61,166 nucleotides of DNA from a virus (Duplodnaviria > Caudoviricetes). Below are positions 1-61,166 of this stretch, piece after piece. How positions within the stretch are numbered: the stretch's first letter is position 1; each line of letters begins with the position of its first letter. The stretch is taken from the IMG/VR virus record IMGVR_UViG_3300034161_000007, positions 1-61,166 of that record. One strand, given 5' to 3'. The notes under the pieces were generated by a model. It ran no database searches and was not told the origin of the DNA. It saw nothing but the letters and a program-made list of their open reading frames with translations. The translations under genes and the position numbers were made by a program.

Positions 1-127
1 CTTGAGCTTTTTATAGGCTTGCTGGCGCGACAGGCCACCGCCGCCCGAGGATGGGCCGCCGAGGTTTTCGCTATCGATCACCCGATAGAACGGCACATAG
101 AATTCATCGCTCCAGGTGGCGCGCTGC
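1..127. repeat. 127-bp exact duplication of 61040-61166 (circular-assembly overlap)
   Basis: cttgagctttttataggc...ggtggcgcgctgc is identical at both ends; 127 is a standard assembler k-mer; the reading frame of the giant gene runs through the junction. Confidence 0.95.
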
Positions 128-3100
128 TCCGGGGTGATGATGCCCGACTGCTCGGCAATGCCCAGCACGTCGTCGCGGTGCTGCTGGAACTCTTTCCACA
201 CTTGCTGATAGAGCAGGCTGCGGCTTTTGCCGTCGGCCAGTTTGCCGCCGCTGAACTTGATACCCGCCTCGATTTCAGCCGGGGTGAACAGGTTTTCACG
301 GCCTTCGCCGAGCAGGCGCTTGGAGCGGTTGGCCGCGATCCAGCCCATGAAGCGGGTCATTTCCGCCACGCTACCGAGCTTGTTCAGGGTGTCGCCCAGG
401 CCTTTGCTGTTGTCGTGCAGGTCAATGACCTTTTCCACCGGGTCAAGGTAGATGCGACCGTGATGCAGCAAAGCATCCACGGCGCCGCCTGCGGCCTGGC
501 TCATGCGCGCCAGCACCCACGAACTGGAAGCAATCGAGCCTTCCAGCGTGTCGGCGCCGTACAGGGCTTGGTCATTGCGCATCAGCGGCGCGTACCGGTC
601 GACCGCCGCCTGGCGAATGCGCAGACCGAGGTTGTCAGTCAGTTGGCGCCAGCGATCCGCCAGCCGTTGCGGCAGTTTCTGCGGGCCGATCTTGTCGCTG
701 AAGCTGGTGGCGTCGGCATTGTTCTTGATGTCGTCGAAGTGGTCCGACAGCTTGACGCTGTAACGAATAGGGCCGTCGCTGGCCTTGGGCTCGCGATACA
801 TCGACTCACTGATTTCAAAGTTCTTGTTGCCACCTTTGTTTTCGACAAAGCCGAAGCGCTTATAGAACTGATTCAGGCGGGCCTTGCTACCACCGAAGTC
901 ACCCGAAGGCGTCAATACGATGGTCTTGCCGTTGGCGTCTGCCCATTCAGCGATCCGCCCCATAACCTGTGTGCCTGTTCCGGCGCTGCGCTCAGGCACA
1001 ACGATGCGCGACAGGTTGATTTGATCACCCTTGCCCAGCAGGTCGAGCTTCAAGCCGGGGAACTCAGCTTTGAGCTGTGTGCTCAGGTCTTCAGCGGTCA
1101 TTTCAGCCGGTGCGCTGAACATGGTCCCGGCCGGGCCGAACAGCTCGCCACGCTTGGCCAGCGCCATCGATACCAGCGCATCCTTGGCCATGGCGCGCAG
1201 TTGCGCCGGGGTGACTTGGCCCAGTTGCTTGCCGTAGCGGCTGAACAGCCAGTGCTTGATGGCACCCACCAGATCGTCAACCCACTTGCGGAAGGCGGCC
1301 GGCAGCTGCGCGTGCTCTTCAATGGCGTAGGCGCCGAACTCTTCGGCGGTCATACCATCGGCAACGGCGCCTTGATCCTGCGCCTGTTGTACGCGCTCAC
1401 GGGCGCGATCAAACACTTCGCGAGCCTTGCCGGTGGATTGCTCGGCCTGGCGGTGCAAACCGTCCAGGCGCTTCATCAGCTGCGCCCAGCGCTGCGAGCC
1501 GACCAGCTGCTCGCCACCACTATGAAACATTTCATGCAGCAGCACGCCGTTGGCGTTGCCCGGGGTCAGGTTGGCCGCCACCAGATGCACGGTGCCATCG
1601 GGAGTAGTGACCGCTTGCATGCCACGCACCGGCGTCACGCCGTCCGGCAGCGATTGCACGTTGCCGTGAACCACGATGTGCCCGGCGTCGATCAGCTTCT
1701 TGACCACCGGGCCAAACGGGCCTTGGGTAATCGCGTCGCGCACTTCCTGGTGCGAAGCCGGCTCGCCGACTGGTGCCGCCACCGACAGGCGATTACCGTC
1801 GCCCAGGTATTTCGAGCGGATGAAGAAGCCGCCGTTTTTAGGGAAGGTGTACGGGTCGATTTCCTTGGCTTCATCCTTGGTCAGATCGGTGCGCACGATA
1901 CCGGTGATGGTTTTACCCTTGCCGGTGACGTGCTCGATCATGACCGGCTTCGGCTCGGGTTTGCTGCTCGGCGAGCGGTCGGGCAGGTCCAGGTGCTCGA
2001 TGCGGTCGAACAGTTCGCCAGTCGACTGGGCATTGCTCAGGTTGATCGTGCGCGCATGAATGTTCAGTGCGTCGTCCGGGTTGCTGTGTTTCTCCAGCAC
2101 GATGACCTGCGTGTTGACCGCCGTGCCGGCGCGCTCGAAGGTCGAAGCCGGCATGTCGAAGGTGGCCACGCGGTGCAGGCTTTTTGCTTCATCACTTTCC
2201 AGGAAGGCCGCCAGGCGCTTATCGGTCAGGCCGCCACGCGGGATCAAGGCGACGATCCGCCCGCCTTCGCGCAGGTGCTTGGCCGCCTTGGCGACGTGCT
2301 CGACGGCGGTCTTGCCGCCGTTGCCGTAAGGCGGGTTCATCACCACGGCGTCGTACTTGTTGGTCAGGTGCAGCGACTCGAAGGTGTCGTTGATGATCCG
2401 CGCGTTGCCGTTGGCCAGGGCCGCCCGCTGCGACAGGTCATAACTCGGCTCGACCATGGTCACGTTGGCCTGCGGCGGGAAGAACCGCGCAATGGCGCCG
2501 TGCCCGGCCGACGGTTCCAGTACGTCGTCACCCTTCTGGATGTTGGCCCACTCGGCCATCTTGAAGCCGACCGGTTCCGGGGTGGCAAAGTAGTCGGTGC
2601 CTTCGCGCTGGTCGCGGCGCTTGGTGTTCTTCTGCTGGGCGAAGTAGTAGGCCTTGGCCTTGGCGAACGGGCTCAGTGCCGAAGCCGCGCCCAGCTCACG
2701 ATCCAGTTCCTTGCCGCCCTTGCCATCCTCGGCGCTCGGGGCCAGGTCTTCGGCGCCGTTGTAGGCGTCGATGAAGGATTGCTTCAAGCCGCGGGCTTCA
2801 GTGCCCAGCGCCAGGTTTTCAGCGGTCGAGGCGCGCTCGGCGATCTTGCTGGCGAAGGCGCTGGCCTCCCAGGCCGTGCCGGTGGTCAGGTAACGGAATG
2901 CCGCATCACTGGCTTGCCCGGTGCGGTAGGTGCGGCCCTCGATCTGGATCGCCGCCACAGGCTTGCCTGGCATGCCTAGGTTGATCAGCACGCGCATGTG
3001 CTGGCCGGTGGTGTCGTGCAAGCTGACGCCTTCACGGCCGGCGTCCGACTGCAAGACGATCAAGTCCTTGCCGCTGGTGTCGTCGTTGAAGGTGTCGGCG

Positions 3101-6100
3101 TTGCTGCGGCGCTTGGCCTTGGGCACGGTGCCGTTGAAGAACAGCGCATCCGGGAAGGCCGCCGCCAAGGTCTCAATCGGCGAATACAGGCCGTTAAGGT
3201 CCATCTTCTTGAAGATGTCCGGGCGTGCGGCAAAGGCTTCGCGGGCCAGCGCCCGGGTATCCGCCTCGGTGATGCTGGCCAGTCCGGCGTTGAACGGATC
3301 GAAGCCACCGCCCTTGTTGTAGTCGTGGAACACCACCACTTTGCGGCCGAGCTTCAGGTGCGCCTTGATCAGCGGCACTACGGCTTTAGCCTTGATCGAC
3401 TCCAGCAAGTACATGCGCTTCTGGTAGTCGAAGGTCGACATCACCGCGTTGTACACTTCGCGGTACTTGCCGTCCTCATGCTCGCGCAGGAAGGCCAGGC
3501 CTTGGTCGATCTTCTGGCCCACGGCGTCATCGACCATCACAAACTTGCGGTCGTAGTCGTAAGGCACTTCCAGGCGGCGGCCCGACAGCGCGCCGACGTC
3601 CTTCAGGTGCTGGTTAAACCCTTGCTCCATCAGTTCGGAGTCAACCCCAGCTTCCGGCGCGGTCAACTTGTTGTAACGCATGCGGTAGCCGAAGTGCTGC
3701 ATGAAAAACTTCTCACGCGCATCACCGCTGTTGTAGGCCGAACCGGCCATTTCCGCCTTGTTGCTGAAGCGCTCGGCCGGATCGACGTAATCGAACAGGT
3801 AGCCCTCGGCGTAGTCCACGCTTTTGACGTAGGCGAATGGCGTGGCCGACAGGAACAGGGTTTTTGGCAGGTCTTGTTGCTTGGCCCAGCGCGCTTGCCA
3901 AGCCTTCTTGGCTGGCTCTTCGATGGCGGCCCAGGCTTCAGCAGCGTCGTCGCGGGCTTCGGTCAGGGCGTCCAAGTCCTTGGCCGAGTAGTTGGCCAGC
4001 TGCTCCTGCTCGGGCATGGCGGCCTGCGCTTGTTGCAGCGCTTGCCATTCCTTGTGGTTGCGCTCGCGCACCCACTGATAGAAGCCATCCGGGTGACCGG
4101 TCAAGCCTTGCAGCTTGGTCAGCGCGCCCGTGCCTTCACCCTTCTCGTTGCTCGACAGGTAATGCGCCTCATCGGCCACGACCTGATCCCAGTCACGCAG
4201 GGCCAGGCTATCGTTGGCGCCGAAGTTGGCATAGGTGGTGATGACCTGGCCGTCTTTGCCGTTGTCGGTGGTGCCGGTCAGTTGTTTGAGGTTGACGCCC
4301 AGCATCTTGGCGAACTTCACCCAGTCCGAGGCGATCTTGTCGCTCGGCACGATGACGATAGCGTTGGGCTTGCCGGCGTTGATCGAGCGCACTACGACAC
4401 CCATGCCGCTGGCGGTCTTGCCGGTGCCGGTGCCGTTGGTGAGCAGCATGCCATTGCCAACGGCGTAACGCTGCTCGGCCTTGAGCACGTCACCGCGCTG
4501 GGGCTCAAGCAGAAGGGGCAAGGCTTGATCAATGTTGGCTTGGTCGCCGCGTACCGTTGGGGTGCCAGCTGCTTTTTTCTGCGCGGCTAGACGTTGACCG
4601 AACTCGTCGGCATCAGTGGCAGGAGCAGTTTCAACAATGTGCTCTGCTCGCTGGTGCTCAACGGGTTTTCCTGCGTCGCTATCGCCACCGCTTCGGGCGG
4701 ATTCAGCACCTCCGGCATCGCCGAGCGTAGGTCTGAATGCCCCGTCTGGTTGATGTACGCGCTGATCGCCTGATTCTCGGCCAGTAGCGGCGCCATCAGT
4801 TGGTAGGCGTTGATCACGCTGTCCGTCTGCCCGGCCTTCGACATCGCTTGCGCCTGGCTCGCCAGTGCGTCGTCCAGCTGCGGCTGGCTCATCGGAAAGA
4901 GCAGCTGCATCGACGGGTTTTGCAGGGGTTGCGTCTGTGCGATTTGATTCCACACGCTCGCCGGGACTTGCTGCATTTACTGCGCTCCCTTGTTGCGGCG
5001 TTTCACTTCGCGCGCCAGGTGCTGGTCGCTGTCCGTCTGTGCCACGCGCGCCAGTACCTGCGTCATCAGGTTGTGCGTCTCCGAAGAGGCCTTGTTGCTG
5101 GCTGGCTTGGGCTTCTTGGCGGTCGAGTTTGTCATGCGTGCCTCGGAGTAAGTCGGCGCCGGTCACTTCCGGGTCGCCAAACAGGTTAGTGCCCGGCTGG
5201 GTTGCGCGGGCCAACTGAGTATAGGTCAGAAGTGCGTCAGCTACTGTAGCTCGGCTGCGCGCACGCGCCAAGCTGGCGCCGCGATAGAACACGCCAACCC
5301 AGTCTTTGGTCGCCTGATCCAGTTCACCAGAGAAAATATCGTTCTGGTTCACCAGCTCATAAACCGACTTGCCCTGTGCGCGCGCTTGGCGCACCAGGTT
5401 CACCGCTTCGATCAGGTTCGGCGTCACGTCGACGGCCTTGGAGATTTGCCCGTCGCGCGATTCCTGGCGCATCTGCGCCCATGGTCCGGCCGCATCGAGC
5501 AGCGCGCTGCCAATCGACTTAATGTCGCTGTCAGTGCTCTCGAACAAGTCATTGATCAGGCTCGGCTCATCGTAGGCGGCCGATAGCAGCGCAGCCTCGA
5601 TCCGGCGCCGGCCTTCCTGCGACAACATGCCGTCGCTGTCCATCAGGCTGCCGCGATCACTCTTGCTGGCCACGTCGCCAATGAAGGCACGGACGAACTC
5701 GCGATTCGCCGCGCCCGCCACGTCGCCACCGTTGAACAGGTGCAGGAGGTCGCCCACCTTCTTGGCATCGGCCACGGCGCGCTCGGTTGAGCTCAGTGCC
5801 AGGGTGGTGCGTTCGTTGGCTTCGGTGGTGTAGGCCTGAAGCTGTTCGGTGGTCATCGGCGTGACGCGCTCGCGCACCAGGATCGGCGAAGCCATGCCGG
5901 CCACGTCGTAACCTTGCGATTCAAGCCAGTCGCGGTACTTCACCGCCGATTGATTGTCGAGGGCGTAGGCCTGACGAATTGCCAGGGTTCGGCCGTTGCC
6001 GCTTTCCACCACACCTTCCGGCGAGACAATCGGGGCGCCGTCGGTGGCGCTGGCGCTGTCGCCGAGCAGGCGCGGGTTCAGGTTCTTGGCCATGCCATTG

Positions 6101-9100
6101 ATCTGATCCAGCGATGCCGAGCGCGAACGGTCGCGCGGTTGCAGTTCTTTCGGGTAGGCCGGGTTGACCGGGCCGTCGACGAAATTGGACGTGATCAGGG
6201 TGTTCTCTTCGACCACCTTGTGCCGCACCTGGAACTCGGTGCCGGCCGGGGTGCTTACGGTTTCCAGCTTGCCAACTACCGAGGATTTCTCGGTGGTTGC
6301 CTTGCCGCCGCGATCAACATAATCGCTCGCCTGTCGCGGGCTCCAGCCGTTCTTGGCTTCCTTGCCTTCAGTTGGGTGGAACATATGGGTGAACTGCTGG
6401 CCATCGTCGCGCACAGTGCCCGGCGATTCAGGGTAATACAGCCACTGCTCGCCATCATGCTGGATCGGCACGGCGCCGTTCGCCTTGACCTTGGCCAACC
6501 ATGTAGCGTGTGCGGTTGGCTCGGTTTGAACTGTGGCAATTTTTGCCTTAGTTGCCGGTTCAGCTGCTGGGTTGTCCAGCTTGGCCAGTTCAGCGCGCAC
6601 GGTGTCGGCGTTGTCCATGCCGTCGACCGAGTGGCCGGCATCTTCCATCATGTCGCGCGCACCGTTGAACCAGCTGCGCAGGTACGGGCGCACTTTTTCC
6701 AGTGGTTGGCCCAAGTCCTCGGCCATGGTCTTGGCGAAAGCGGCGAACTGACGCACGCCGGCCTCGATGTGGAACACCGCCAGCTCGGTGCCCATTGCCA
6801 GAATCTCGGGATCGATGCCGCTGTTCAGCTGAGAGCCGTTCAGTTTGGCCTTGAGTTTGGCGCGCAGTTCGGCCGCGCGGTCCTGGCTCACCAGCTTGTT
6901 GCTGGCGCCGTACTCGGCCGCCTTGGCCAACTCCTTGGCGGTTTCAGCGGCTGGCGTTGGCGCCTCCAACTTGGCCGGCTGCTCGGCCGTCAATGGCTTG
7001 GTAAATGGTCGCTGGGGTGGCGCGATTGGCGCATCGCCAAACAGGTACTCTTCGGCGCCGTCTTTGTCGGCCGTCTGCGGCTTGTCACGGCCAGCCTCAA
7101 ACTGGCGGCGCGCAAAGCCATCGCCGCGCGCTTCAGCCTCGGCAATGGCGTTATCCATCAGCCACTGGTCAACCGCCTTGAGGGTGGCTGTCGTTTTGCG
7201 CGGGGTGTCAGTTTTAACATTTGGGAACGGTGTAGTGTTCCGACCGCTGGCGGTCTTGACGACTTCGCCGGAGCCCATCTTGTCGCCTACTTTGCCCTGG
7301 CGCACATCCTTCTCGACCTTCTGATAGGTCACACCTTTGCGCTCGGCCACAGCAAGGTCGGCATACGACAGGCTGGTGCCGCTGTTGGAGTCGATGCGCT
7401 TAACGTGGACGTTGCCCTGGCTGTCGATGCTCTCAACGGTGTAGGTCTGACCGCCGCTGATATAGCCGACGTCGCCGGAGGCAACGAATTGCTCGCCTTC
7501 CTTGATCCCACCCATGCGCTCACGCGCCGCTTGACGCTTGGCTTCTGCGCGCGCCTTGGCTTTCTGTTGCGGGCTCAGTGGCTTCGATGCAGGTTCAGCG
7601 GCTTTTGATGCAGGTTCTGCCGCTGGCGTTGCAGTTTTCGGCACTTCTGATGCAGGTTTTACCGTTTCTGTTGCGGCACCCGATGCTTTCCACAGGTCGG
7701 CAATCTTGAAGGTGTGCATGCGATCCACCGACAGCTCGCCAGCCTTGGCAAAGGGAGGGCTGTCGGTGAATGTGCGACCTTCACGCATGCCGGCGAACAC
7801 GGCATTAATGTTTTTTGCACCCTCGCTGCGGCGCCACTTCACATAGTCGACGGCGGCCTGACGCGCGGCGTTCACGTCGGCGCGATCAATTCCGTCATGT
7901 TCAAGGGCCGGGTCGTCAACACCATACTTAGACAGGTCTGGAACACCTTCTGTTTCGGCCAGCATCTTGCTGTAATCGGCACCGCTGTCGGTAGCGACCT
8001 GTTGAACCTTGCTCAGAGTGTCGCGGGCCTTGGCGATACCCGGGCGCAACTCTTCGACCAGCGCCTTGACGGCCGGGTCGTCCTTGCCGCGCGCCTTGAA
8101 TGCAGCCTTCAAGCGTTGCTCAGCCTGGCTCAGTGTGTTCAGCGCGGTATGCAGTTCACCCTCTACTGCGGATGGCAGCTTGCGCCGTTCTGCGCGAACG
8201 TCCGGTTTGTCGGTCTTTTCCTTAGTCGGCTTGATCTTGCCCGTCTCATCGCCGGCCTTGATCGAGGCATTAACCTCGGCCAAGTGCTGCTGAATTGGAA
8301 CGGCTTCGTACTTTTCAGTATTGAGCGCGTCGACCTTCTTCTGGTCGAAGGTTTCCATGATAACTTCGCCGGACGCCTTGTCGCGGATAACCCAACTAGC
8401 GGTGCGCGACAGGCTGTTAGTCGGCTCATTCTTCGGCTTCGCTTCCTTGGCACCGTCGACGATCTGCACATTGCGAAGCTCGTCCTGTAGCGCGCGGTGG
8501 ATAGCGGGCTCATCCATGCCTTGCTCGCGCATGCCCGCCATTCTGGCCTCAAGCGCTTCATCTTTCTGTGTGCGCTCTTCCTTCGCGGCTGCGCGGTCCT
8601 TGGCTTCTTCCGTGTTGCGCAGCTGGTCAGCCACGGCTTTGCCTTTCTTGGCATCGATGGCTTTGCCGATGGCCGTGCGGCGCTTCATCAGCACAGAGAA
8701 GCCGTTACGGCTGTCCTTGCTGTTCTTTTCCAGCGGGTAATCCTTGATCTGTTGGGCGATGTCCTTCAAGGCAGCGCGCAGCTGCGGCTCGTCCAGGTCG
8801 TTAATGCCTTGCTCGGCTTCACGGTTCAGGCGGTCGCTCAGTAATTCGTGCTTGCGGGTTTCGCCAGCTGCGGCCGGCTCTTCCTTGGCGGCTGGCGCTT
8901 CAGGCTCGACCACGTCGGTCAGCGTCGGCACTTCTTCGGTCAGCGTTGGAATATCAACCCCGGGTTTCACCACGTCCGTCAGGGTCGGGATTTTGCCGAC
9001 TTTACCGGTGGTTGGAACAGATGGGGTCGCCTGCGCCGGTTGTGCCGCTGGTGCCGGTTCGGTGACTGGCGCATTGGCGCGTTCGAGCTGGACGCCATCG

Positions 9101-11220
9101 TCCTGGGTGAACTCATAGGCGTTGCCGTCATCAGCGAGCACGCGCGCGGTCCACTGGCCTTGGCCGTGATCCTCGTAATGTTCCAGGGTGCCGGCCATTT
9201 CGCCGTCGGAACTGCGCACAGTGACTGGTTCGCCGGCCGGCTCAGCGGCTGGAGCAGGAGCGGGCTCAGGCGCGACGTATTGCTGCGCGGCGCGGGTCAG
9301 CGGACCTGTGGGAGCGGGCGGTGCGGCGGCGGGCGCCGGTGCGGGCTCAGGCGCCACGGTTTCAGCGGCGGGAGCCGGCGCTTGCTGGGGCTCGCCTGTG
9401 GGAGCGGGCTCTGCTTGTGGCTGTGCTTGTGCGGCGGCAGCGGCGTCAGCTTCACGGTTGCGAGTAGGGATCGCATCGGCGGCCTTCTGCAAGCCATGCA
9501 CGCCAGCCTTGAGCGCCATACCCGCGCCCGCACCGGTAATCATCGCGTCGGCCAGGTTCTGCCGGGCCTGCGCCCACGTCATGTTCGGATCAATCGAACC
9601 TTTGTCCAGGCCGTCCTGGATGATCTGCGTTACGCCTTCCTGTACAGACTCGGCGGCGCCAGCCTTGAGCAGGCCTTTGAAGAAGTTTTGCCCTGGCTGG
9701 AGAATGACATGGATCGGCAAGCCTTCAGGGATCGCCTCGGCCATACCCTGCGCCAGCGCATAGCTGCCCGCATCCTGCGCGTTCAGACCGCCCGCGCGAC
9801 CTTTGTTGTAGCTTTGACCGGTCACCTGGCCGCCAATCAACGACATGCCTACGGCCGGGTTGCGCGTGATTGCCGATGCCGCCAGCGCCGGGATCATTTC
9901 CGCCGTCGAACTGATGATCATGCTGCCGTACTTGGCCAGCGGACCATCAGGACGCACCTCGATGGTGTCGAGCTTGGCGTCCTTCGCGGTCTTCTTCGCC
10001 CACTCGGTCACAGCACGCGGCTGCATGCCAATCAGTGCGCCGGCTTCGTCCAGCGACATCAGCGTGGTGGCATTCTTGCGGATGTAGTTAGCAATGTTCG
10101 CCTCGTCAGCCGGCTTGCCATTGCGCAGGGTCGGGGTCATCTGGCCATGGTCGTTCTGCACCATGATGATGTCGCCGTTGTCCTGCATGCGCTGGATGAT
10201 GCCGGAGCTGCCCGCGTTACCGACCAGGGTGGCGTTGTCGATGCTTTCACCACCCATGCGCACCAGACCGGCCACGGCGTCTTTCATGTGCGGGCCGAAG
10301 TTCTGCAACTGCTTGCTGGTGGCTTGGGTAAAGGTGTCTTCCGGACGCGTGTCGACCGGCGCCATGCCTTTCTGCACCAGGTCTTGGTTGGTCGGGGTCA
10401 GTGGCGACGGCGCCGGAGTGCTGTTGACCTTGTCCTCGACGCGCTGCTGGTTGTTCAGGGTCAGCGGCGACGGGGCTTGGTAAGCGCCTGTTTCCTGCTG
10501 CGCACGATCAAACGCACCCTTGCCACTGGCGATGTCGGCGCGCTCTTGGTCGCGCTGGGCGATGTCGGCCGGGTCGATCACCTTGTAGCGGCCGGGTTCC
10601 TTGGCGTCCATTTCCGCTTGGATCGCGGCTAGGTCATTGCCCGGGGCAGCCGGCGCGGCGGCCTTCTTGCCAGCCATCAGCTGGTCACCAATGATACTGG
10701 CCTTGGCCAATACCTCTTGGCCGTAGGCGTTGGTCTTCTCGCCCCACTGCTGGCGGTTGTCACCACCAAAGTGAGCCTTTACCGCGTCTTCCATGCTGTA
10801 ACCCTTGTCCAGGCGCTCGCGCAGCTGCTTGGCCGCGCCGGCAATCGCCTGCTCAGGGTTGAACGGATCGATACCCAAAGCCTTGGCGTTGGCGTCGAGG
10901 TTTTGCAGCATACCCTTGGCCTGGCCCCACTTGGTCTGCTCGCCCACGGCATTGGCGTTATAGCCCGATTCTTGCTGTGCCAACGCTGACACCACGTTCA
11001 GCGGCACGCCGTACTCGGCGGAATACTTCTCAAACAGGGGTTGAAGGTCAGGCGGTGGCAGTAGGCCTTTGCTCATGACAGTGGCGGCACTGGACGTCAG
11101 CGGGCCGGCGCTGGTACTGCGCGGCGGCAGGGTCTGAATATCGGGCGCCGGAGGCACAACGGGCGCGGTGGCAGTAGAGCCAGTCGCGGAGGGCGACTTG
11201 AGGAAAAGGTTTTCTGCCAC
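1..11220 (-). CDS. Giant DarB-like polyvalent internal virion protein, 5' part (continues across the junction to 59147; ~4,370 aa total)
   Basis: GTG at 11220 with GAGGA RBS; frame read open to base 1 and in frame with ORF 59147..61135. Motifs: SLT (AQQESGYNANA ~10970), ddrB/ParB-like (YPKELQPRDR, VESGNGRT ~5990-6160), SF2 helicase (NGTGTGKT ~4430, DEAH ~4165, QSDAGREGVSLHD ~3030), N6-MTase (DYFATP, EPSAGHG, NPPY ~2330), HEMFH (~1530), GNAT-like (GTGTQVM...RLNQFYKRFGF ~850-1000). Confidence 0.9.
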   Translation of the reverse strand, partial: MAENLFLKSPSATGSTATAPVVPPAPDIQTLPPRSTSAGPLTSSAATVMSKGLLPPPDLQPLFEKYSAEYGVPLNVVSALAQQESGYNANAVGEQTKWGQAKGMLQNLDANAKALGIDPFNPEQAIAGAAKQLRERLDKGYSMEDAVKAHFGGDNRQQWGEKTNAYGQEVLAKASIIGDQLMAGKKAAAPAAPGNDLAAIQAEMDAKEPGRYKVIDPADIAQRDQERADIASGKGAFDRAQQETGAYQAPSPLTLNNQQRVEDKVNSTPAPSPLTPTNQDLVQKGMAPVDTRPEDTFTQATSKQLQNFGPHMKDAVAGLVRMGGESIDNATLVGNAGSSGIIQRMQDNGDIIMVQNDHGQMTPTLRNGKPADEANIANYIRKNATTLMSLDEAGALIGMQPRAVTEWAKKTAKDAKLDTIEVRPDGPLAKYGSMIISSTAEMIPALAASAITRNPAVGMSLIGGQVTGQSYNKGRAGGLNAQDAGSYALAQGMAEAIPEGLPIHVILQPGQNFFKGLLKAGAAESVQEGVTQIIQDGLDKGSIDPNMTWAQARQNLADAMITGAGAGMALKAGVHGLQKAADAIPTRNREADAAAAAQAQPQAEPAPTGEPQQAPAPAAETVAPEPAPAPAAAPPAPTGPLTRAAQQYVAPEPAPAPAAEPAGEPVTVRSSDGEMAGTLEHYEDHGQGQWTARVLADDGNAYEFTQDDGVQLERANAPVTEPAPAAQPAQATPSVPTTGKVGKIPTLTDVVKPGVDIPTLTEEVPTLTDVVEPEAPAAKEEPAAAGETRKHELLSDRLNREAEQGINDLDEPQLRAALKDIAQQIKDYPLEKNSKDSRNGFSVLMKRRTAIGKAIDAKKGKAVADQLRNTEEAKDRAAAKEERTQKDEALEARMAGMREQGMDEPAIHRALQDELRNVQIVDGAKEAKPKNEPTNSLSRTASWVIRDKASGEVIMETFDQKKVDALNTEKYEAVPIQQHLAEVNASIKAGDETGKIKPTKEKTDKPDVRAERRKLPSAVEGELHTALNTLSQAEQRLKAAFKARGKDDPAVKALVEELRPGIAKARDTLSKVQQVATDSGADYSKMLAETEGVPDLSKYGVDDPALEHDGIDRADVNAARQAAVDYVKWRRSEGAKNINAVFAGMREGRTFTDSPPFAKAGELSVDRMHTFKIADLWKASGAATETVKPASEVPKTATPAAEPASKAAEPASKPLSPQQKAKARAEAKRQAARERMGGIKEGEQFVASGDVGYISGGQTYTVESIDSQGNVHVKRIDSNSGTSLSYADLAVAERKGVTYQKVEKDVRQGKVGDKMGSGEVVKTASGRNTTPFPNVKTDTPRKTTATLKAVDQWLMDNAIAEAEARGDGFARRQFEAGRDKPQTADKDGAEEYLFGDAPIAPPQRPFTKPLTAEQPAKLEAPTPAAETAKELAKAAEYGASNKLVSQDRAAELRAKLKAKLNGSQLNSGIDPEILAMGTELAVFHIEAGVRQFAAFAKTMAEDLGQPLEKVRPYLRSWFNGARDMMEDAGHSVDGMDNADTVRAELAKLDNPAAEPATKAKIATVQTEPTAHATWLAKVKANGAVPIQHDGEQWLYYPESPGTVRDDGQQFTHMFHPTEGKEAKNGWSPRQASDYVDRGGKATTEKSSVVGKLETVSTPAGTEFQVRHKVVEENTLITSNFVDGPVNPAYPKELQPRDRSRSASLDQINGMAKNLNPRLLGDSASATDGAPIVSPEGVVESGNGRTLAIRQAYALDNQSAVKYRDWLESQGYDVAGMASPILVRERVTPMTTEQLQAYTTEANERTTLALSSTERAVADAKKVGDLLHLFNGGDVAGAANREFVRAFIGDVASKSDRGSLMDSDGMLSQEGRRRIEAALLSAAYDEPSLINDLFESTDSDIKSIGSALLDAAGPWAQMRQESRDGQISKAVDVTPNLIEAVNLVRQARAQGKSVYELVNQNDIFSGELDQATKDWVGVFYRGASLARARSRATVADALLTYTQLARATQPGTNLFGDPEVTGADLLRGTHDKLDRQEAQASQQQGLFGDAQPDDAGTGARGTDGQRPAPGARSETPQQGSAVNAASPGERVESNRTDATPAKPVDAAALSDEPAAAGRRTGEPGASDVEGRADGQRDQRLPTDGAATGRESGDQRVHQPDGAFRPTLGDAGGAESARSGGDSDAGKPVEHQRAEHIVETAPATDADEFGQRLAAQKKAAGTPTVRGDQANIDQALPLLLEPQRGDVLKAEQRYAVGNGMLLTNGTGTGKTASGMGVVVRSINAGKPNAIVIVPSDKIASDWVKFAKMLGVNLKQLTGTTDNGKDGQVITTYANFGANDSLALRDWDQVVADEAHYLSSNEKGEGTGALTKLQGLTGHPDGFYQWVRERNHKEWQALQQAQAAMPEQEQLANYSAKDLDALTEARDDAAEAWAAIEEPAKKAWQARWAKQQDLPKTLFLSATPFAYVKSVDYAEGYLFDYVDPAERFSNKAEMAGSAYNSGDAREKFFMQHFGYRMRYNKLTAPEAGVDSELMEQGFNQHLKDVGALSGRRLEVPYDYDRKFVMVDDAVGQKIDQGLAFLREHEDGKYREVYNAVMSTFDYQKRMYLLESIKAKAVVPLIKAHLKLGRKVVVFHDYNKGGGFDPFNAGLASITEADTRALAREAFAARPDIFKKMDLNGLYSPIETLAAAFPDALFFNGTVPKAKRRSNADTFNDDTSGKDLIVLQSDAGREGVSLHDTTGQHMRVLINLGMPGKPVAAIQIEGRTYRTGQASDAAFRYLTTGTAWEASAFASKIAERASTAENLALGTEARGLKQSFIDAYNGAEDLAPSAEDGKGGKELDRELGAASALSPFAKAKAYYFAQQKNTKRRDQREGTDYFATPEPVGFKMAEWANIQKGDDVLEPSAGHGAIARFFPPQANVTMVEPSYDLSQRAALANGNARIINDTFESLHLTNKYDAVVMNPPYGNGGKTAVEHVAKAAKHLREGGRIVALIPRGGLTDKRLAAFLESDEAKSLHRVATFDMPASTFERAGTAVNTQVIVLEKHSNPDDALNIHARTINLSNAQSTGELFDRIEHLDLPDRSPSSKPEPKPVMIEHVTGKGKTITGIVRTDLTKDEAKEIDPYTFPKNGGFFIRSKYLGDGNRLSVAAPVGEPASHQEVRDAITQGPFGPVVKKLIDAGHIVVHGNVQSLPDGVTPVRGMQAVTTPDGTVHLVAANLTPGNANGVLLHEMFHSGGEQLVGSQRWAQLMKRLDGLHRQAEQSTGKAREVFDRARERVQQAQDQGAVADGMTAEEFGAYAIEEHAQLPAAFRKWVDDLVGAIKHWLFSRYGKQLGQVTPAQLRAMAKDALVSMALAKRGELFGPAGTMFSAPAEMTAEDLSTQLKAEFPGLKLDLLGKGDQINLSRIVVPERSAGTGTQVMGRIAEWADANGKTIVLTPSGDFGGSKARLNQFYKRFGFVENKGGNKNFEISESMYREPKASDGPIRYSVKLSDHFDDIKNNADATSFSDKIGPQKLPQRLADRWRQLTDNLGLRIRQAAVDRYAPLMRNDQALYGADTLEGSIASSSWVLARMSQAAGGAVDALLHHGRIYLDPVEKVIDLHDNSKGLGDTLNKLGSVAEMTRFMGWIAANRSKRLLGEGRENLFTPAEIEAGIKFSGGKLADGKSRSLLYQQVWKEFQQHRDDVLGIAEQSGIITPEQRATWSDEFYVPFYRVIDSENLGGPSSGGGGLSRQQAYKKLK
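4587..4976 (-). CDS. Putative overprinted 129-aa gene in the +1 frame of the giant gene
   Basis: ATG preceded by AAGGGAG RBS; protein-like helical composition (MQQVPASVWNQIAQTQ...), while the giant-gene frame here is R/G/D-rich low-complexity linker. Confidence 0.6.
   Translation of the reverse strand: MQQVPASVWNQIAQTQPLQNPSMQLLFPMSQPQLDDALASQAQAMSKAGQTDSVINAYQLMAPLLAENQAISAYINQTGHSDLRSAMPEVLNPPEAVAIATQENPLSTSEQSTLLKLLLPLMPTSSVNV
4977..5135 (-). CDS. Putative overprinted 52-aa gene (MTNSTAKKPKPASNK...RRNKGAQ) directly upstream of 4587..4976
   Basis: GAGG 5 nt before ATG; its TAA stop abuts the next ATG (TAAATG); same +1 frame. Confidence 0.5.
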   Translation of the reverse strand: MTNSTAKKPKPASNKASSETHNLMTQVLARVAQTDSDQHLAREVKRRNKGAQ

Positions 11221-31143: not shown

Positions 31144-31918
31144 GGTCAGCCACCGGTTTAAGGACTTTTCCGGCCATTTGCGTCATCAGCGCGACCAGAG
31201 GGTTAGTCGGATCAACGCCGAGATTGATCTTGTCGTTGAACATCCCGAGGTGTCGGGCGATATGTTCGAGCGCCTTCGAGCGATCCTGAATCTTGATTTC
31301 GATCCCGTACTTGGTTTCCTTGGCGGTATCGAACAGCAGGCGAGCAGCAGGCGACAGGTTGCGGGTGTCGGCCAGCTGGACGTGCGGGAAGCCCTGGCCG
31401 AAACACTTAGGGCAGGCAGTGACAGGCGGGCGCGTCGGGTTGTAGCCATAGCCGCCGTTGTCGTTGGGCTCTTCACCGTCGTCGGCCTGCGCGCATTCCT
31501 TCTCGTATTCGTCGGCATCGATCCACTGGTGCAGGTGGTCAATGCCGTAGCAGTGACGGCAGCAGCGGATATGAACCGCGCTCAATTCAGACGAGTCAGC
31601 GCTTGCGATGTCCCACCAGCGACGCAGCACCTTGTCTTGTGTGATGCCTGTGCGTTCGGCTCGCGCATCCATGGCAGCCTTGACCAAGGCCATGACCTTA
31701 TCATCGCTCAGCAAGCGGGCAGAGGTCACATGCGCCGAGTTGGCGGCATAGCCGGCACGGATGGCGGCCTGTGTACCGTTCAGGTCAATGATGTATTCCT
31801 GAATGAAGGCATCACGGCGAGCACTTGGCCGCGACGGGCCTGGCAGCGTGCCTTTGGGCTTGGCCTTCTTGATCTTCTTGCGCTTGGGCGGCGCCTTGGT
31901 CTTGGCTGGTACGGTCAT
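31136..31918 (-). CDS. terS: Terminase small subunit with inserted Zn-binding region
   Basis: FIQEYIIDLNGTQAAIRAGY HTH; CCRHC...CPKC insert; KALEHIARHLGMF; GAGG RBS before ATG 31918. Confidence 0.9.
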   Translation of the reverse strand: MTVPAKTKAPPKRKKIKKAKPKGTLPGPSRPSARRDAFIQEYIIDLNGTQAAIRAGYAANSAHVTSARLLSDDKVMALVKAAMDARAERTGITQDKVLRRWWDIASADSSELSAVHIRCCRHCYGIDHLHQWIDADEYEKECAQADDGEEPNDNGGYGYNPTRPPVTACPKCFGQGFPHVQLADTRNLSPAARLLFDTAKETKYGIEIKIQDRSKALEHIARHLGMFNDKINLGVDPTNPLVALMTQMAGKVLKPVADHE

Positions 31919-31949
31919 GGATAGCCTCGGGTATAGAGTGGAAACAGTA

Positions 31950-31984
31950 GGTTTGATTATCGAACCGTTGCAGGCACTACGCAA
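31950..31984 (-). promoter_or_regulatory. sigma70-like promoter for the packaging operon
   Basis: TTGCGT-N17-GATAAT-CAAACC; 16-mer GTTCGATAATCAAACC identical to the capsid promoter. Confidence 0.65.
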
Positions 31985-31991
31985 CAGGCAT

Positions 31992-32020
31992 AAAAAAGCC
32001 CCGCGGTTGAAGGCGGGGCT
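31992..32020 (-). terminator. Rho-independent terminator closing the tRNA/ncRNA transcript
   Basis: AGCCCCGC...GCGGGGCT stem followed by a T run on the minus strand. Confidence 0.85.
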
Positions 32021-32029
32021 CGATGTCGG

Positions 32030-32712
32030 TCTACCACTCCGGCATGACTCGCGGTGCTGGCGAGCTTTTGTTAGATCACCCTATTAACGACCAACTGGTG
32101 TTTCCTGGTGATCCACGGTCGGATGCAAAGGCCGGCGCTGATCCCCGGCTTGACTATTAGCGACCTTAGTGACACCGGGGTTTCACCGGGGCGAAGGTTT
32201 CAGTCGCTTATTATTGGACTCGCCATGGCCATCTGGGCGCTTACTCACTTTGCCGGCCACGATTCCCGCAATCCATCAGGTCTTACACTTGCCCATCAGC
32301 CTGGGCGTTCATCTGCATCTGAGAGCTGTCAATGGCTCGTCACTTGAGGACGAAACAAGCCCGCTCCTGTCCTACGTCGTGGTAGCCCTACGGGGTCTCC
32401 CGGCTTTCCACTCACACAGGCATCTTGGACCACGGACAGCTTTCAGATACAGCCTGGACTTACAGCGGCACAAACCCGCGCGCGGGACCGCATCCCAGGA
32501 CAGCACTGAATACAAACGGCCGGGGCTCTATCCGGCTTATCGCCAATCTTTCATCTGTATCGCTGTGTGATCGTCACCATTACGGGCCAAGGGTATCTTT
32601 CGACCTAACCTCGACCCCAGGGGACCGAACCCTGTAGATCACACAGCTGTTAAAGACGGTGTGCCGCATGTGCGGGCTGGCAGCTGGGGAGCCGCGACTT
32701 TGCTTCAGGATA
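32030..32712 (-). ncRNA. Putative structured ncRNA array downstream of the tRNAs
   Basis: No credible ORF; successive long closing helices (32562-72/32637-47 11 bp perfect; 32313-30/32435-52 18 bp with one G-U and one mismatch; 32122-29/32312-19; 32074-80/32107-13). Confidence 0.6.
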
Positions 32713-58947: not shown

Positions 58948-59172
58948 ATGCTGTCTGACTTTCTCGGCCTTGGCGTGCTCGCCACCGTCATCGGCGCCTT
59001 TATCTACACGCAGGTGCCGCCGCACTGGCAAAGCCTTGGCGGCTTCCTGCTGATCGTCTTCGGCTGGCTCCCGGTTGGCATCCTTGCCATCTGCCTGTTC
59101 AAAGCGCCGGTGATGATGGTTCCGGCGCTGATTGTGGTGGTGGCCCTTATTGCCCCCCGGAAGACCGCTTAA
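58948..59172 (+). CDS. Small very hydrophobic membrane protein, antisense to the late genes
   Basis: GGAG RBS; about 3 TM segments in 74 aa. Confidence 0.65.
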   Translation: MLSDFLGLGVLATVIGAFIYTQVPPHWQSLGGFLLIVFGWLPVGILAICLFKAPVMMVPALIVVVALIAPRKTA

Positions 59173-61166
59173 CCATCTTCTGCCGTTCCAAGTCCTTACC
59201 CACTTCCTCGGTCATCAGGTTGCGCATCGAGCGCAGGCGGTCCAGCTCCAGGCGTTTGGTCTTGCCGTCCATTTCCTTGTCGACTTGCACCCGCTTCATT
59301 TCCGCATTGATCCGCGACATATCCTTATTGACCTTGTTCAAGGTGCCGCGCAGCGCCAGCACGTCCGCCTCTTTCTGCTCCAGGGCCACGGCCTTCTCTT
59401 CCTCGCCGTACTTGGCCAGGTGTTGCAGGTCGGCGTAGGCCTGATCGGACTTCTTCAAAGCGTCATAGAAGTCGGTGCCGTAGCGCGTGTAGTTGTCTTC
59501 CTTGGTCAAGTCCTTGTAGAAGCGTTTCACCGGCTGGTATTCGTCCCAGCTGCGCGCCGGCAACTCTTCGCCCTGCGCGCGACGCCAGAAGGTGTCAGCC
59601 ATGCCGACCGCTGTTGCGCCGACCGCGCCCATGTAACCCTGAATCAAGTGGTCAATCTGTACCGGCGACAGCGCCGAGTTGCCGGCACCCACCACGTCCA
59701 GCGCACGCTCAATGCCGCGGCTCGATGCTTCAGCCAGGCGCGAAGTGTCCGGACGCGAACGCAGGCTTGGACTTAGGCGCGACATCGATTGGTCTTCAAT
59801 CGGCCGACCGGTAAAGGTGTTTTCGTTATAACCCAGTTCCAGCACCGGCTTCAGTGCTTGCGGTGTCGGGTTCATGGCGAAGGTGTCGATAAGCATGTGC
59901 ATGGCGCGGCTGGCCAGCTTGTCACCGCCAACGGTCGGATCGGCGAACTGCTCCATCAGGCGCTCGCCCATGGTGGCAATCGAGCCGACCTCGAACGGCT
60001 TCGGAATGAAGAACATGCTGTCGCCGAGCTTGATCACCCAGTAGGTGTCGCGCTGCCAGTCTTCCAGCTTGCGGTAGTCCTCATCGTCCTTGTTGCGCAG
60101 GTAGAGCATCACACTGAAGGCGGTCAGCGCGCCGACCACGGCGGCGAAGCGGGCAAAGGCCTGCTTGTCCGATTTGGTGCCCTTGCCGAACATCGTTTTC
60201 AAGGTTGGCTTGGCGCCCGAGCGATAGAGCTTGTCCAGGCCTTGGATGCGCGCATTGAGGAACGGCACCACGTCGGTGAAGAACTTGATAATCCCAGCAT
60301 CCCCGTGCGCGCTGAAGTCCATCAGGTCGCGCGCCTCAAATGCGGCCTTGAGTTTGCCCTTGGATTGGTTGTGCTCCCAAATCCCGGCGCGGTTCATGTT
60401 CTCCGCAAAGTCGGTGACGTCGTGGTATTTGCGCCACGCCTTCATCAGCGTATTCGGGATCAACATCGGGTCTTTGAGCACTTGCGCGGTGCGCATGGTG
60501 CCATTGAGTGATGCCTTGAACTCGGTGGCGCCATGGCCGTAGACCTGGCCGAAGTGGAAGCCGCCGCCGCTGGCCATCAGGCGCGCGCGCTGGCGGTTGT
60601 TGCCATAGGTCAGCGCACCCTTGAACGCAGTTTTCAGCGGAATGGCGCTGGTCGGCGACGTAGCCATGGCCGCCAGCGTATCGCGGATGGCGTTCGCCAC
60701 CACAAATTGCGGGGTGATGGTGGTCATGTTGGTGAAGAAGCGCTTGAAGCCGCGCATGATCCGACGGTGCAAGGTGTTATTGCCGACGTCAGTGATCGCC
60801 GATACCGCCTTGAAGGTCAGCGGGTCGGTGACGTTGTACCACTGCTTAACCCCGTTTTCCATGACGAAGGTGCTGGCGTTCTTGTCCTTGTGCGCCTCGG
60901 TGGTCTTGTCAGCAATGCCCAGCTGCTCGGCGTTTTCCATGGCTTGCGCCGCCGCCTGATTCTTCAGGCTGGCTTGCACCAGGTGGTGGAAATTGAGCAG
61001 GGTGTTTTCCAGCAAGTCGTTGAGGTGCTGCTTGCCGCCCTTGAGCTTTTTATAGGCTTGCTGGCGCGACAGGCCACCGCCGCCCGAGGATGGGCCGCCG
61101 AGGTTTTCGCTATCGATCACCCGATAGAACGGCACATAGAATTCATCGCTCCAGGTGGCGCGCTGC
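59147..61166 (-). CDS. Giant polyvalent protein, 3' part (LPD38-like C-terminal domain)
   Basis: In frame with 1..11220 across the junction; PFLNARIQG, YWVIK...FFIPKPFEVG, NENTFTGRPI, IDHLIQGYMG. Confidence 0.9.
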   Translation of the reverse strand, partial: QRATWSDEFYVPFYRVIDSENLGGPSSGGGGLSRQQAYKKLKGGKQHLNDLLENTLLNFHHLVQASLKNQAAAQAMENAEQLGIADKTTEAHKDKNASTFVMENGVKQWYNVTDPLTFKAVSAITDVGNNTLHRRIMRGFKRFFTNMTTITPQFVVANAIRDTLAAMATSPTSAIPLKTAFKGALTYGNNRQRARLMASGGGFHFGQVYGHGATEFKASLNGTMRTAQVLKDPMLIPNTLMKAWRKYHDVTDFAENMNRAGIWEHNQSKGKLKAAFEARDLMDFSAHGDAGIIKFFTDVVPFLNARIQGLDKLYRSGAKPTLKTMFGKGTKSDKQAFARFAAVVGALTAFSVMLYLRNKDDEDYRKLEDWQRDTYWVIKLGDSMFFIPKPFEVGSIATMGERLMEQFADPTVGGDKLASRAMHMLIDTFAMNPTPQALKPVLELGYNENTFTGRPIEDQSMSRLSPSLRSRPDTSRLAEASSRGIERALDVVGAGNSALSPVQIDHLIQGYMGAVGATAVGMADTFWRRAQGEELPARSWDEYQPVKRFYKDLTKEDNYTRYGTDFYDALKKSDQAYADLQHLAKYGEEEKAVALEQKEADVLALRGTLNKVNKDMSRINAEMKRVQVDKEMDGKTKRLELDRLRSMRNLMTEEVGKDLERQKMVKRSSGGQ

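Follow-up and report, generated by a model that had tools for sequence, protein, structure and literature searches.

The subject of this analysis is a pair of open reading frames (ORFs) nested within a giant phage gene of the IMG/VR record IMGVR_UViG_3300034161_000007, the complete record of 61,166 bp being called the window from here on. The product of the giant gene is a phage-type, DarB-like polyvalent protein, in which several unrelated effector domains are carried by one ORF. In the +1 frame of this gene, an ORF of 52 amino acids (aa) is followed by one of 129 aa, the two being joined by a TAAATG junction (4979-4974) with a single TAA between them and falling together within giant residues 2029-2212, between the ddrB-ParB and the ResIII/DEAD domains (Table 1). 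A preliminary description of the window had reported both ORFs, and its coordinates, ribosome-binding sites and junction were all recovered. Moreover, its claim that the 129-aa product contains no Cys and a single Arg agreed with the translation, and the giant protein was found to be rich in Arg, Gly, Asp and Ala between the ParB-like and helicase domains, as it had stated (18% Ala, 13% Gly, 11% Asp and 10% Arg). Cysteine is also absent from the 52-aa product, and the 129-aa product has neither a lipoprotein signal nor a membrane segment. The comparative results point to a real, conserved and unannotated nested gene, which in this clade probably belongs to a two-gene cassette.

Table 1. Features of the nested locus and of the enclosing giant gene (SD, Shine-Dalgarno; pLDDT, predicted local distance difference test; GC3, G+C content at third codon positions).
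Feature	Position in window	Giant-protein residues	Strand	Basis
Nested gene 2, 129-aa protein of a predicted new family, giant gene +1 frame; ATG 4976-4974, TAG 4589-4587	4587..4976		-	Conservation, selection, GC3 signature, AlphaFold2
Nested gene 1 (probable), 52-aa basic protein, same +1 frame; TAA 4979-4977 abuts next ATG	4977..5135		-	Comparative signature
SD-like AAGGGAG, 8 nt before the ATG of the 129-aa ORF	4985..4991		-	Sequence
SD-like GAGG, 5 nt before the ATG of the 52-aa ORF	5141..5144		-	Sequence
Passenger-frame linker of the giant protein	4615..5106	2039-2202	-	pLDDT <50, coil; main-frame identity no higher than that of the third frame
Giant polyvalent DarB-like protein gene, main frame	1..11220		-	ORF listing, translation, Pfam
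C-terminal continuation of the giant gene across the record ends	59147..61039		-	5'-open ORF at window end; circularised translation
SLT domain		62-166		Pfam
ddrB-like ParB domain, upstream of the nested genes	5866..6243	1660-1785	-	Pfam PF18763, E=2e-32
Helicase module, ResIII/DEAD N-lobe to Helicase_C, directly downstream of the nested genes	2755..4458		-	Pfam
Methyltransferase domain	2236..2520	2901-2995	-	Pfam MTS PF05175

Conservation of the 129-aa ORF was assessed in related phages and contigs. A blastn match to Pseudomonas phage Skulduggery started exactly at the nested ATG. With the 129-aa product as tblastn query, a search that the preliminary description had proposed, eight phage records were matched, representing six phages (two of them also present as duplicate records): Skulduggery, Serratia phage Parlo, Klebsiella phage ZX1, Ruegeria phage 45A6 and two Vibrio phages, with identities down to 32-34%. 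All eight matches lay in the +1 frame of an uninterrupted giant gene, and the nested gene was annotated in none of the six phage genomes, as expected from the earlier suggestion that linkers of other DarB-like proteins hide the same gene. When viral and genome contigs were scanned, 34 loci were obtained, the window counted in, each with a +1 ORF of 120-153 aa starting with ATG and an open main frame (34/34). A degenerate pattern scan returned 48 further stretches, 44 of which were family members (hidden Markov model, E ≤ 3e-27) and four chance matches; no main-frame stop occurred inside the nested ORF in any of the 44. Three relatives of the database protein P0170 (L038-L040) were added, and the pooled 81 loci were reduced to 53 distinct complete sequences of 120-153 aa. 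In this set the nested ORF started with ATG and the giant main frame was open across it in every case (53/53), while the third frame contained 4-19 stops over the same stretch (median 9). An SD-like tetramer was present 5-17 nt upstream of the nested ATG in 40 of the 53 sequences, compared with 9.8% of background positions (p=1e-29). Thus, the homologues did not display stops scattered through the +1 frame, and they retained the start and, for the most part, a ribosome-binding site; the pattern named beforehand as contrary to a gene was not observed.

The selection acting on the overlap was analysed by codon position and by identity in 17 distinct ungapped sequences of 129 codons. The mean pairwise differences at nested positions 1, 2 and 3 were 0.264, 0.186 and 0.363, respectively; nested position 2 being the lowest, the third position of the main frame is therefore the least variable one in the overlap. 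Outside the overlap, in the flanking parts of these genes, the highest variability was at position 3 of the main frame (0.41-0.57). The nested frame had an amino-acid identity of 0.67, compared with 0.50 for the main frame and 0.52 for the third, non-coding one. The corresponding values in the 53-sequence alignment were 0.43, 0.26 and 0.30, this alignment being guided by the nested protein and hence favouring nested-frame identity, a bias from which the ungapped analysis is free. Furthermore, variants were divided into classes according to whether they are synonymous in one frame or the other, and each class was scored as the ratio of observed to possible changes. Those synonymous in the +1 frame only amounted to 148/247, those synonymous in the main frame only to 72/299, and those non-synonymous in both to 179/539. 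The +1-only-synonymous class differed from the main-only-synonymous class with p=2e-17 and from the non-synonymous-in-both class with p=3e-12, in tests that presuppose equal mutation rates and independent sites among related sequences. The mirror image was obtained for the helicase control (7 close sequences), with 10/269, 73/244 and 23/546, respectively. In addition, the NN/NS ratio of the main frame over the 129-aa ORF was at least 1. Both purifying selection on the +1 frame and suppressed synonymous variation in the main frame, the two signs that the preliminary description had proposed to look for, were accordingly found, and as far as the sequences can tell the main frame in the overlap shows no amino-acid constraint and is only kept open.

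The G+C content at the three codon positions (GC1, GC2 and GC3) led to the same frame. Values of 0.61, 0.40 and 0.79 were obtained for the nested frame in the overlap, close to the 0.61, 0.40 and 0.76 of the main frame in the helicase flank, while the main frame in the overlap had 0.78, 0.61 and 0.40. Over the first 11,220 nt of the giant ORF, only one long switch of this signature was detected (aa 2026-2201), nothing else being flagged that matched it in length or depth. The linker is rich in Ala, Gly, Asp and Arg because its main-frame GC pattern is anomalous, being derived from the GC-rich third positions of the nested gene. A separate dip of GC3 to 0.40-0.56 was observed at window positions 7471-7695 (-), corresponding to giant aa 1176-1225, a low-complexity region rich in Lys, Pro, Ala and Ser; no long alternative-frame ORF was present in that interval.

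The 129-aa protein was modelled with AlphaFold2 from a 25-sequence alignment, resulting in eight helices with a pLDDT of 89.1 and a predicted template modelling score of 0.82. When the main-frame reading of the same DNA was modelled with its flanks, coil with a pLDDT of about 30 was returned for giant aa 2039-2202, in line with the disorder previously claimed for the linker; the start of the helicase reached 64-86, and the upstream flank only 38-53, which makes the latter a weak control. A profile search against 1.84 billion representatives retrieved 484 clusters (50% identity) at E ≤ 1e-3, and 318 at E ≤ 1e-10. Among the family matches listed, most align from residue 1, and none of the best 150 was a giant protein. 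Most of the family is acidic (median net charge, -4.4). The C-terminal extensions of ten longer members contained no Pfam domain, and that of P0083 matched the giant protein with E=0.077 at best. Regarding known families, the 129-aa and 52-aa products gave only sub-threshold Pfam matches (vRNAP_dom_2, E=0.096; INCA1, E=0.16), and profile searches of PHROGs, NCBIfam, PADLOC and PDB sequences with the nested products gave no match. Foldseek found no structure in PDB or BFVD at E ≤ 0.001 for the 129-aa model; the best Z in the VIA structure search was 4.2, the noise level for helical proteins, and the ESM Atlas provided no usable match. The 129-aa product is predicted to be a folded, acidic, all-helical protein of a probably new family, and the comparative data indicate that its gene is almost certainly real.

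The two ORFs had been proposed to form an operon. Of this proposal, the 129-aa gene stood in all relatives (53/53), while the 52-aa gene was limited to a sub-clade: a stop abutting the nested ATG, the mark of this clade, was found in 12 of the 53 distinct sequences, and the 52-aa ORF appeared in 12 of the 34 loci examined first, belonging to four lineages. Its start at the aligned site was ATG, or GTG in two loci, and TAA, TGA and TAG were all in use as the stop abutting the next ATG. AGGAG, GAGG or GGAG occupied the SD place in other lineages. The GAGG-type site coincides with main-frame Arg codons that are rare in the giant gene (CGA 5%, AGA 0.9% and AGG 0%), the one in the window being CGA. 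The +1-frame GC3 signature covered the 52-aa ORF in all 12 loci, and among the 53 distinct sequences its onset lay about 160-180 nt earlier in the 12 with an abutting stop than in the other 41. The 52-aa product is basic, with a net charge ranging from +2.6 to +7.7. These features suggest that the 52-aa ORF is likely a gene as well. A complex prediction for the 129-aa and 52-aa proteins, run without controls, scored 0.01 and 0.00 against a mark of 0.32, a result that bears on binding in neither direction.

The nested gene held a constant position with respect to the helicase. In 51 of 52 loci, the nested stop was followed by the Walker A motif (helicase motif I) at a median distance of 51 aa; in the remaining locus, L026, the corresponding site held a variant of the motif. 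On the upstream side, a conserved motif lay 29-563 aa from the nested gene or was missing (19/49 loci); at L028 the main gene started only 184 codons upstream, and the nested gene was still overlapped. The helicase and the nested ORF were present in the same 8/8 phage records, with identities of 56-62% for the nested protein vs. 61-62% for the helicase between close phages, and of 32-34% vs. 32-45% between distant ones.

Taken jointly, these sequence comparisons are read here, with a probability of about 0.8, as a dual-coding stretch of 390 nt (about 550 nt in this clade) that would specify the nested product or products together with a passenger linker. The small proteins would be translated from the mRNA of the giant gene by internal initiation at their own SD and ATG, and in this clade the 129-aa gene would probably be coupled in addition to the 52-aa ORF through TAAATG. 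Independent initiation of the 129-aa gene is highly likely: its ATG is conserved and its SD enriched, and in many lineages the +1 frame is closed by a stop only 0-4 codons ahead of this ATG (window clade, 0; Parlo and ZX1, 2; Vibrio phages, 4). The 129-aa protein may act as an accessory partner of the DarB-like helicase-methyltransferase module, such as a cofactor, regulator, inhibitor or assembly chaperone, and a partner encoded in cis would always be co-expressed with it; from position and co-occurrence, this role has an even chance of being the right one. As to the origin, the small gene is somewhat more probably the older reading, across which the giant ORF would have been built in another frame as flanking genes fused, since it is the nested frame whose codon signature is native and whose product is folded, the enclosing one being disordered and free of constraint. 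A stronger version is doubtful, namely that the linker is the frame-shifted shadow of an undeletable gene, and that the helicase and methylase delivered with the virion form a counter-defence machine that cannot do without a third component, the 129-aa protein, joined in some lineages by the 52-aa one. In such a machine, the 129-aa protein could serve, for example, as an assembly chaperone or as an inhibitor within the cell.

Several points weigh against this interpretation, besides the guidance of the 53-sequence alignment and the assumptions of the substitution tests already indicated. With no matching family, fold or motif, function is argued from position and co-occurrence. Each of the 53 distinct sequences was overlapped by a giant frame and none stood alone, which leaves the fusion origin without an intermediate. 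Scans of viral contigs with P0052, P0092, P0171, P0127 and P0083 gave no stand-alone or in-frame version, and a metagenome scan with P0127 gave no match. Among 400 scored genomes of one bacterial class, the only true match was in the already known G001; a second match was rejected as a chance one within a PurL-like protein. The openness of the +1 frame is a further point, its probability being calculated exactly, conditional on the giant protein sequence and the codon usage of the giant gene. In the window, this probability amounted to 0.36 for the 129-aa ORF and to 0.97 for the 52-aa ORF, so that an open frame there carries no information for either. As for the small ORF, the close relatives L011-L014 lack it, and the substitution result in its favour is based on small counts: variants synonymous in the small ORF alone (15/91) were proportionally commoner than those non-synonymous in both frames (17/239), with p=0.02, and the main frame over it was somewhat constrained too (13/106, p=0.15).

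The possibility that both ORFs are chance by-products of the linker follows from these probabilities. A +1 stop can arise only where the main frame encodes Leu, Val, Ile or Met, and a hydrophilic linker, in which these residues are scarce, is nearly automatically open in that frame; across the GC-rich members the probability of openness rose to 0.85 for the 129-aa ORF and ranged from 0.78 to 1.0 for the 52-aa ORF. The open +1-frame stretches of the giant gene measured 173, 129, 123 and 105 codons, the 129-aa one being only the second longest. The length and composition of the ORFs, offered in the preliminary description as an argument for genes, are therefore not evidence in themselves. The longest +1-frame ORF, of 163 aa from its ATG inside the 173-codon stretch (window 8163-8654, -), had no +1 coding signature and looks like a chance ORF, because the GC3 signature there is the normal main-frame one. 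However, chance leaves unexplained the least variable main-frame third positions, the reversed substitution classes, the native GC1/2/3 pattern of the +1 frame, the confident fold and the persistence of the ORF in Vibrio and Ruegeria phages at identities as low as 32-34%. In the two AT-richer Vibrio phages, the 129-aa-type ORF is open although the probability of this was only 0.003-0.005. For the 129-aa ORF, an origin by chance is thus already contradicted and retains next to no weight; for the 52-aa ORF alone it is rather unlikely.

Another explanation accepts the small protein as real but unrelated to the giant one, being an independent early or late factor, for instance for host takeover or anti-defence, lodged in a tolerant linker from which it is hard to move. 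In its favour, any gene would be tolerable in an unconstrained linker frame, and the small protein is mildly acidic, as are some small phage inhibitors. This explanation is nevertheless judged unlikely, given the strict co-occurrence with one helicase subfamily in the eight phage records, the distance to helicase motif I that stays fixed while everything upstream varies, and the roughly equal rates at which the nested protein and the helicase evolve. Ribosomal frameshifting could also join the nested domain to the giant polypeptide, either by a +1 shift that truncates the protein or by a double shift that inserts the domain. Two database proteins favour this idea, P0170, which combines an upstream main-frame domain and the nested domain, and P0127, which carries the nested domain in frame with a homologue of the giant protein. 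However, a scan guided by P0170 led to relatives (L038-L040) in which the ORF is nested in the +1 frame of an open giant frame, and P0170 itself looks like an indel or assembly artefact. Moreover, the +1 stops found 0-4 codons before the conserved ATG in many lineages (a slippery site was not sought), the start of conservation exactly at an ATG that is present in all 53 sequences and has an enriched SD, and the main frame kept open throughout, which a double shift would not need, make frameshifting very improbable. In P0127, a predicted protein of 328 aa, an N-terminal nested-family domain is in frame with a homologue of giant aa 1468-1518 (43% identity, E=5e-9), and the protein is either a true fusion of the two products or an assembly artefact.

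The dual-coding arrangement can be compared with several known systems. Rz1 has a start of its own and is conserved across phages, and the products of both frames act together; spanin genes also occur overlapped or separated. In phage lambda, the Rz1 gene of the two-component spanin is embedded in the +1 frame of Rz (PMC6139136, PMC5295617). As with Rz/Rz1, the gene described here would be a complete same-strand gene in the +1 frame of another, with its own start and conserved across phages, and the marks of an embedded gene were observed at the sequence level (a nested +1 ORF and ATG in 53/53, an SD in 40/53 and selection in the nested frame). Unlike Rz/Rz1, the enclosing frame is an unconstrained disordered linker of an enzyme of about 4,400 aa and not a functional small partner, and unlike spanin genes in general, only the embedded form occurred (53/53). 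A Rz1-like o-spanin was considered and excluded, as neither product has a lipobox Cys and the 129-aa protein carries no signal or segment for the membrane. Overprinting in small viruses, as in phiX174 (B in A, E in D, and K), resembles the proposed arrangement in that two proteins come from one stretch of DNA, one product being disordered and of skewed composition. In contrast to phiX174, the host genome of this gene is a 61-kb double-stranded DNA phage without obvious pressure on genome size, and of the two frames, the one that looks derived and free of constraint is the long enclosing one rather than the nested short one.

In the Dar system of phage P1, a virion-delivered methyltransferase-helicase depends on small co-encoded proteins, and the P1 record annotates DarB together with the small accessory proteins Ulx, DdrA and Hdf. 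The giant protein of the window is similar in uniting ddrB-ParB, helicase and methylase domains. Unlike here, the accessory genes of P1 are separate, and no similarity was found by hhalign between the 129-aa family and P1 Ulx (0.2% probability) or P1 DdrA (0.1%). In the P1 record (L034, 26577-26975), iddB is annotated inside ddrB on the opposite strand, as a further ORF placed within a gene of the Dar system. As for polyvalent proteins, DdrB-ParB, LPD38 and lysozyme-type domains have been described among those specific to phages (Iyer et al. 2017, PMC5512222). In the main text of that article, the words 'overlapping' and 'frameshift' have no occurrence, and no gene hidden in the other frame of a polyvalent gene is mentioned. 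Similarly, no report of such a gene was encountered in the literature on DarB, PLxRFG, Skulduggery, polyvalent proteins, phage overprinting and ejection proteins (including PMC10386132), supplements not being covered.

If the dual-coding reading holds, a widespread family has been missed, with 484 clusters spread over phages of Pseudomonas, Serratia, Klebsiella, Vibrio and Ruegeria and many uncultured relatives; it would have escaped annotation because gene callers forbid long same-strand overlaps. Giant polyvalent genes would not necessarily be single-product genes, since another gene can give rise to a disordered linker as a side effect, and passenger-frame linkers may be a general hiding place for unannotated genes in giant phage and plasmid genes. 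Such regions could be detected cheaply, by a local change in the GC1/2/3 codon pattern within a long ORF. In practice, the nested gene would be lost unnoticed whenever one of these giant genes is recoded or codon-optimised, and genetic work on the DarB-like module of these phages must separate both products. Removing the nested start codon need not alter the giant protein, as a change synonymous in its frame suffices, which makes the proposal directly testable.

Regarding the enclosing gene, the giant ORF crosses a direct terminal repeat of 127 bp at the window ends (1-127 and 61040-61166) and reaches its stop at 59147, giving 4370 aa when the record is circularised. Within the helicase module, the Pfam limits are aa 2255-2364 for ResIII/DEAD and aa 2693-2822 for Helicase_C. 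The protein is DarB-like in that helicase and methyltransferase domain types are both present and its relatives are annotated as DarB-like; P1 DarB was not among the tblastn matches of its helicase part at E ≤ 1e-10. A relative from the plasmid database is annotated as an LPD38 domain-containing protein. In NZ_CP083940.1 of Comamonas thiooxydans, the nested ORF (39% identity) lies under an LPD38 domain-containing protein at 31795-32103. The sequence is filed as a non-mobilizable plasmid of 57.7 kb, and its size resembles that of these phages, so it may be a phage or a phage-plasmid.

Two further observations concern the giant genes. On the viral contig L051 (6287-9616), the helicase part is broken by several frameshifts and a nested 130-aa ORF is intact; this is either a decaying copy or an error-prone assembly, and the contig was left aside for its short main ORF and its several frameshifts. 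Finally, the strand opposite to the giant gene (window 1-11220, +) contains antisense ORFs of 992, 530, 564 and 594 aa, very long antisense ORFs being usual in GC-rich coding DNA.

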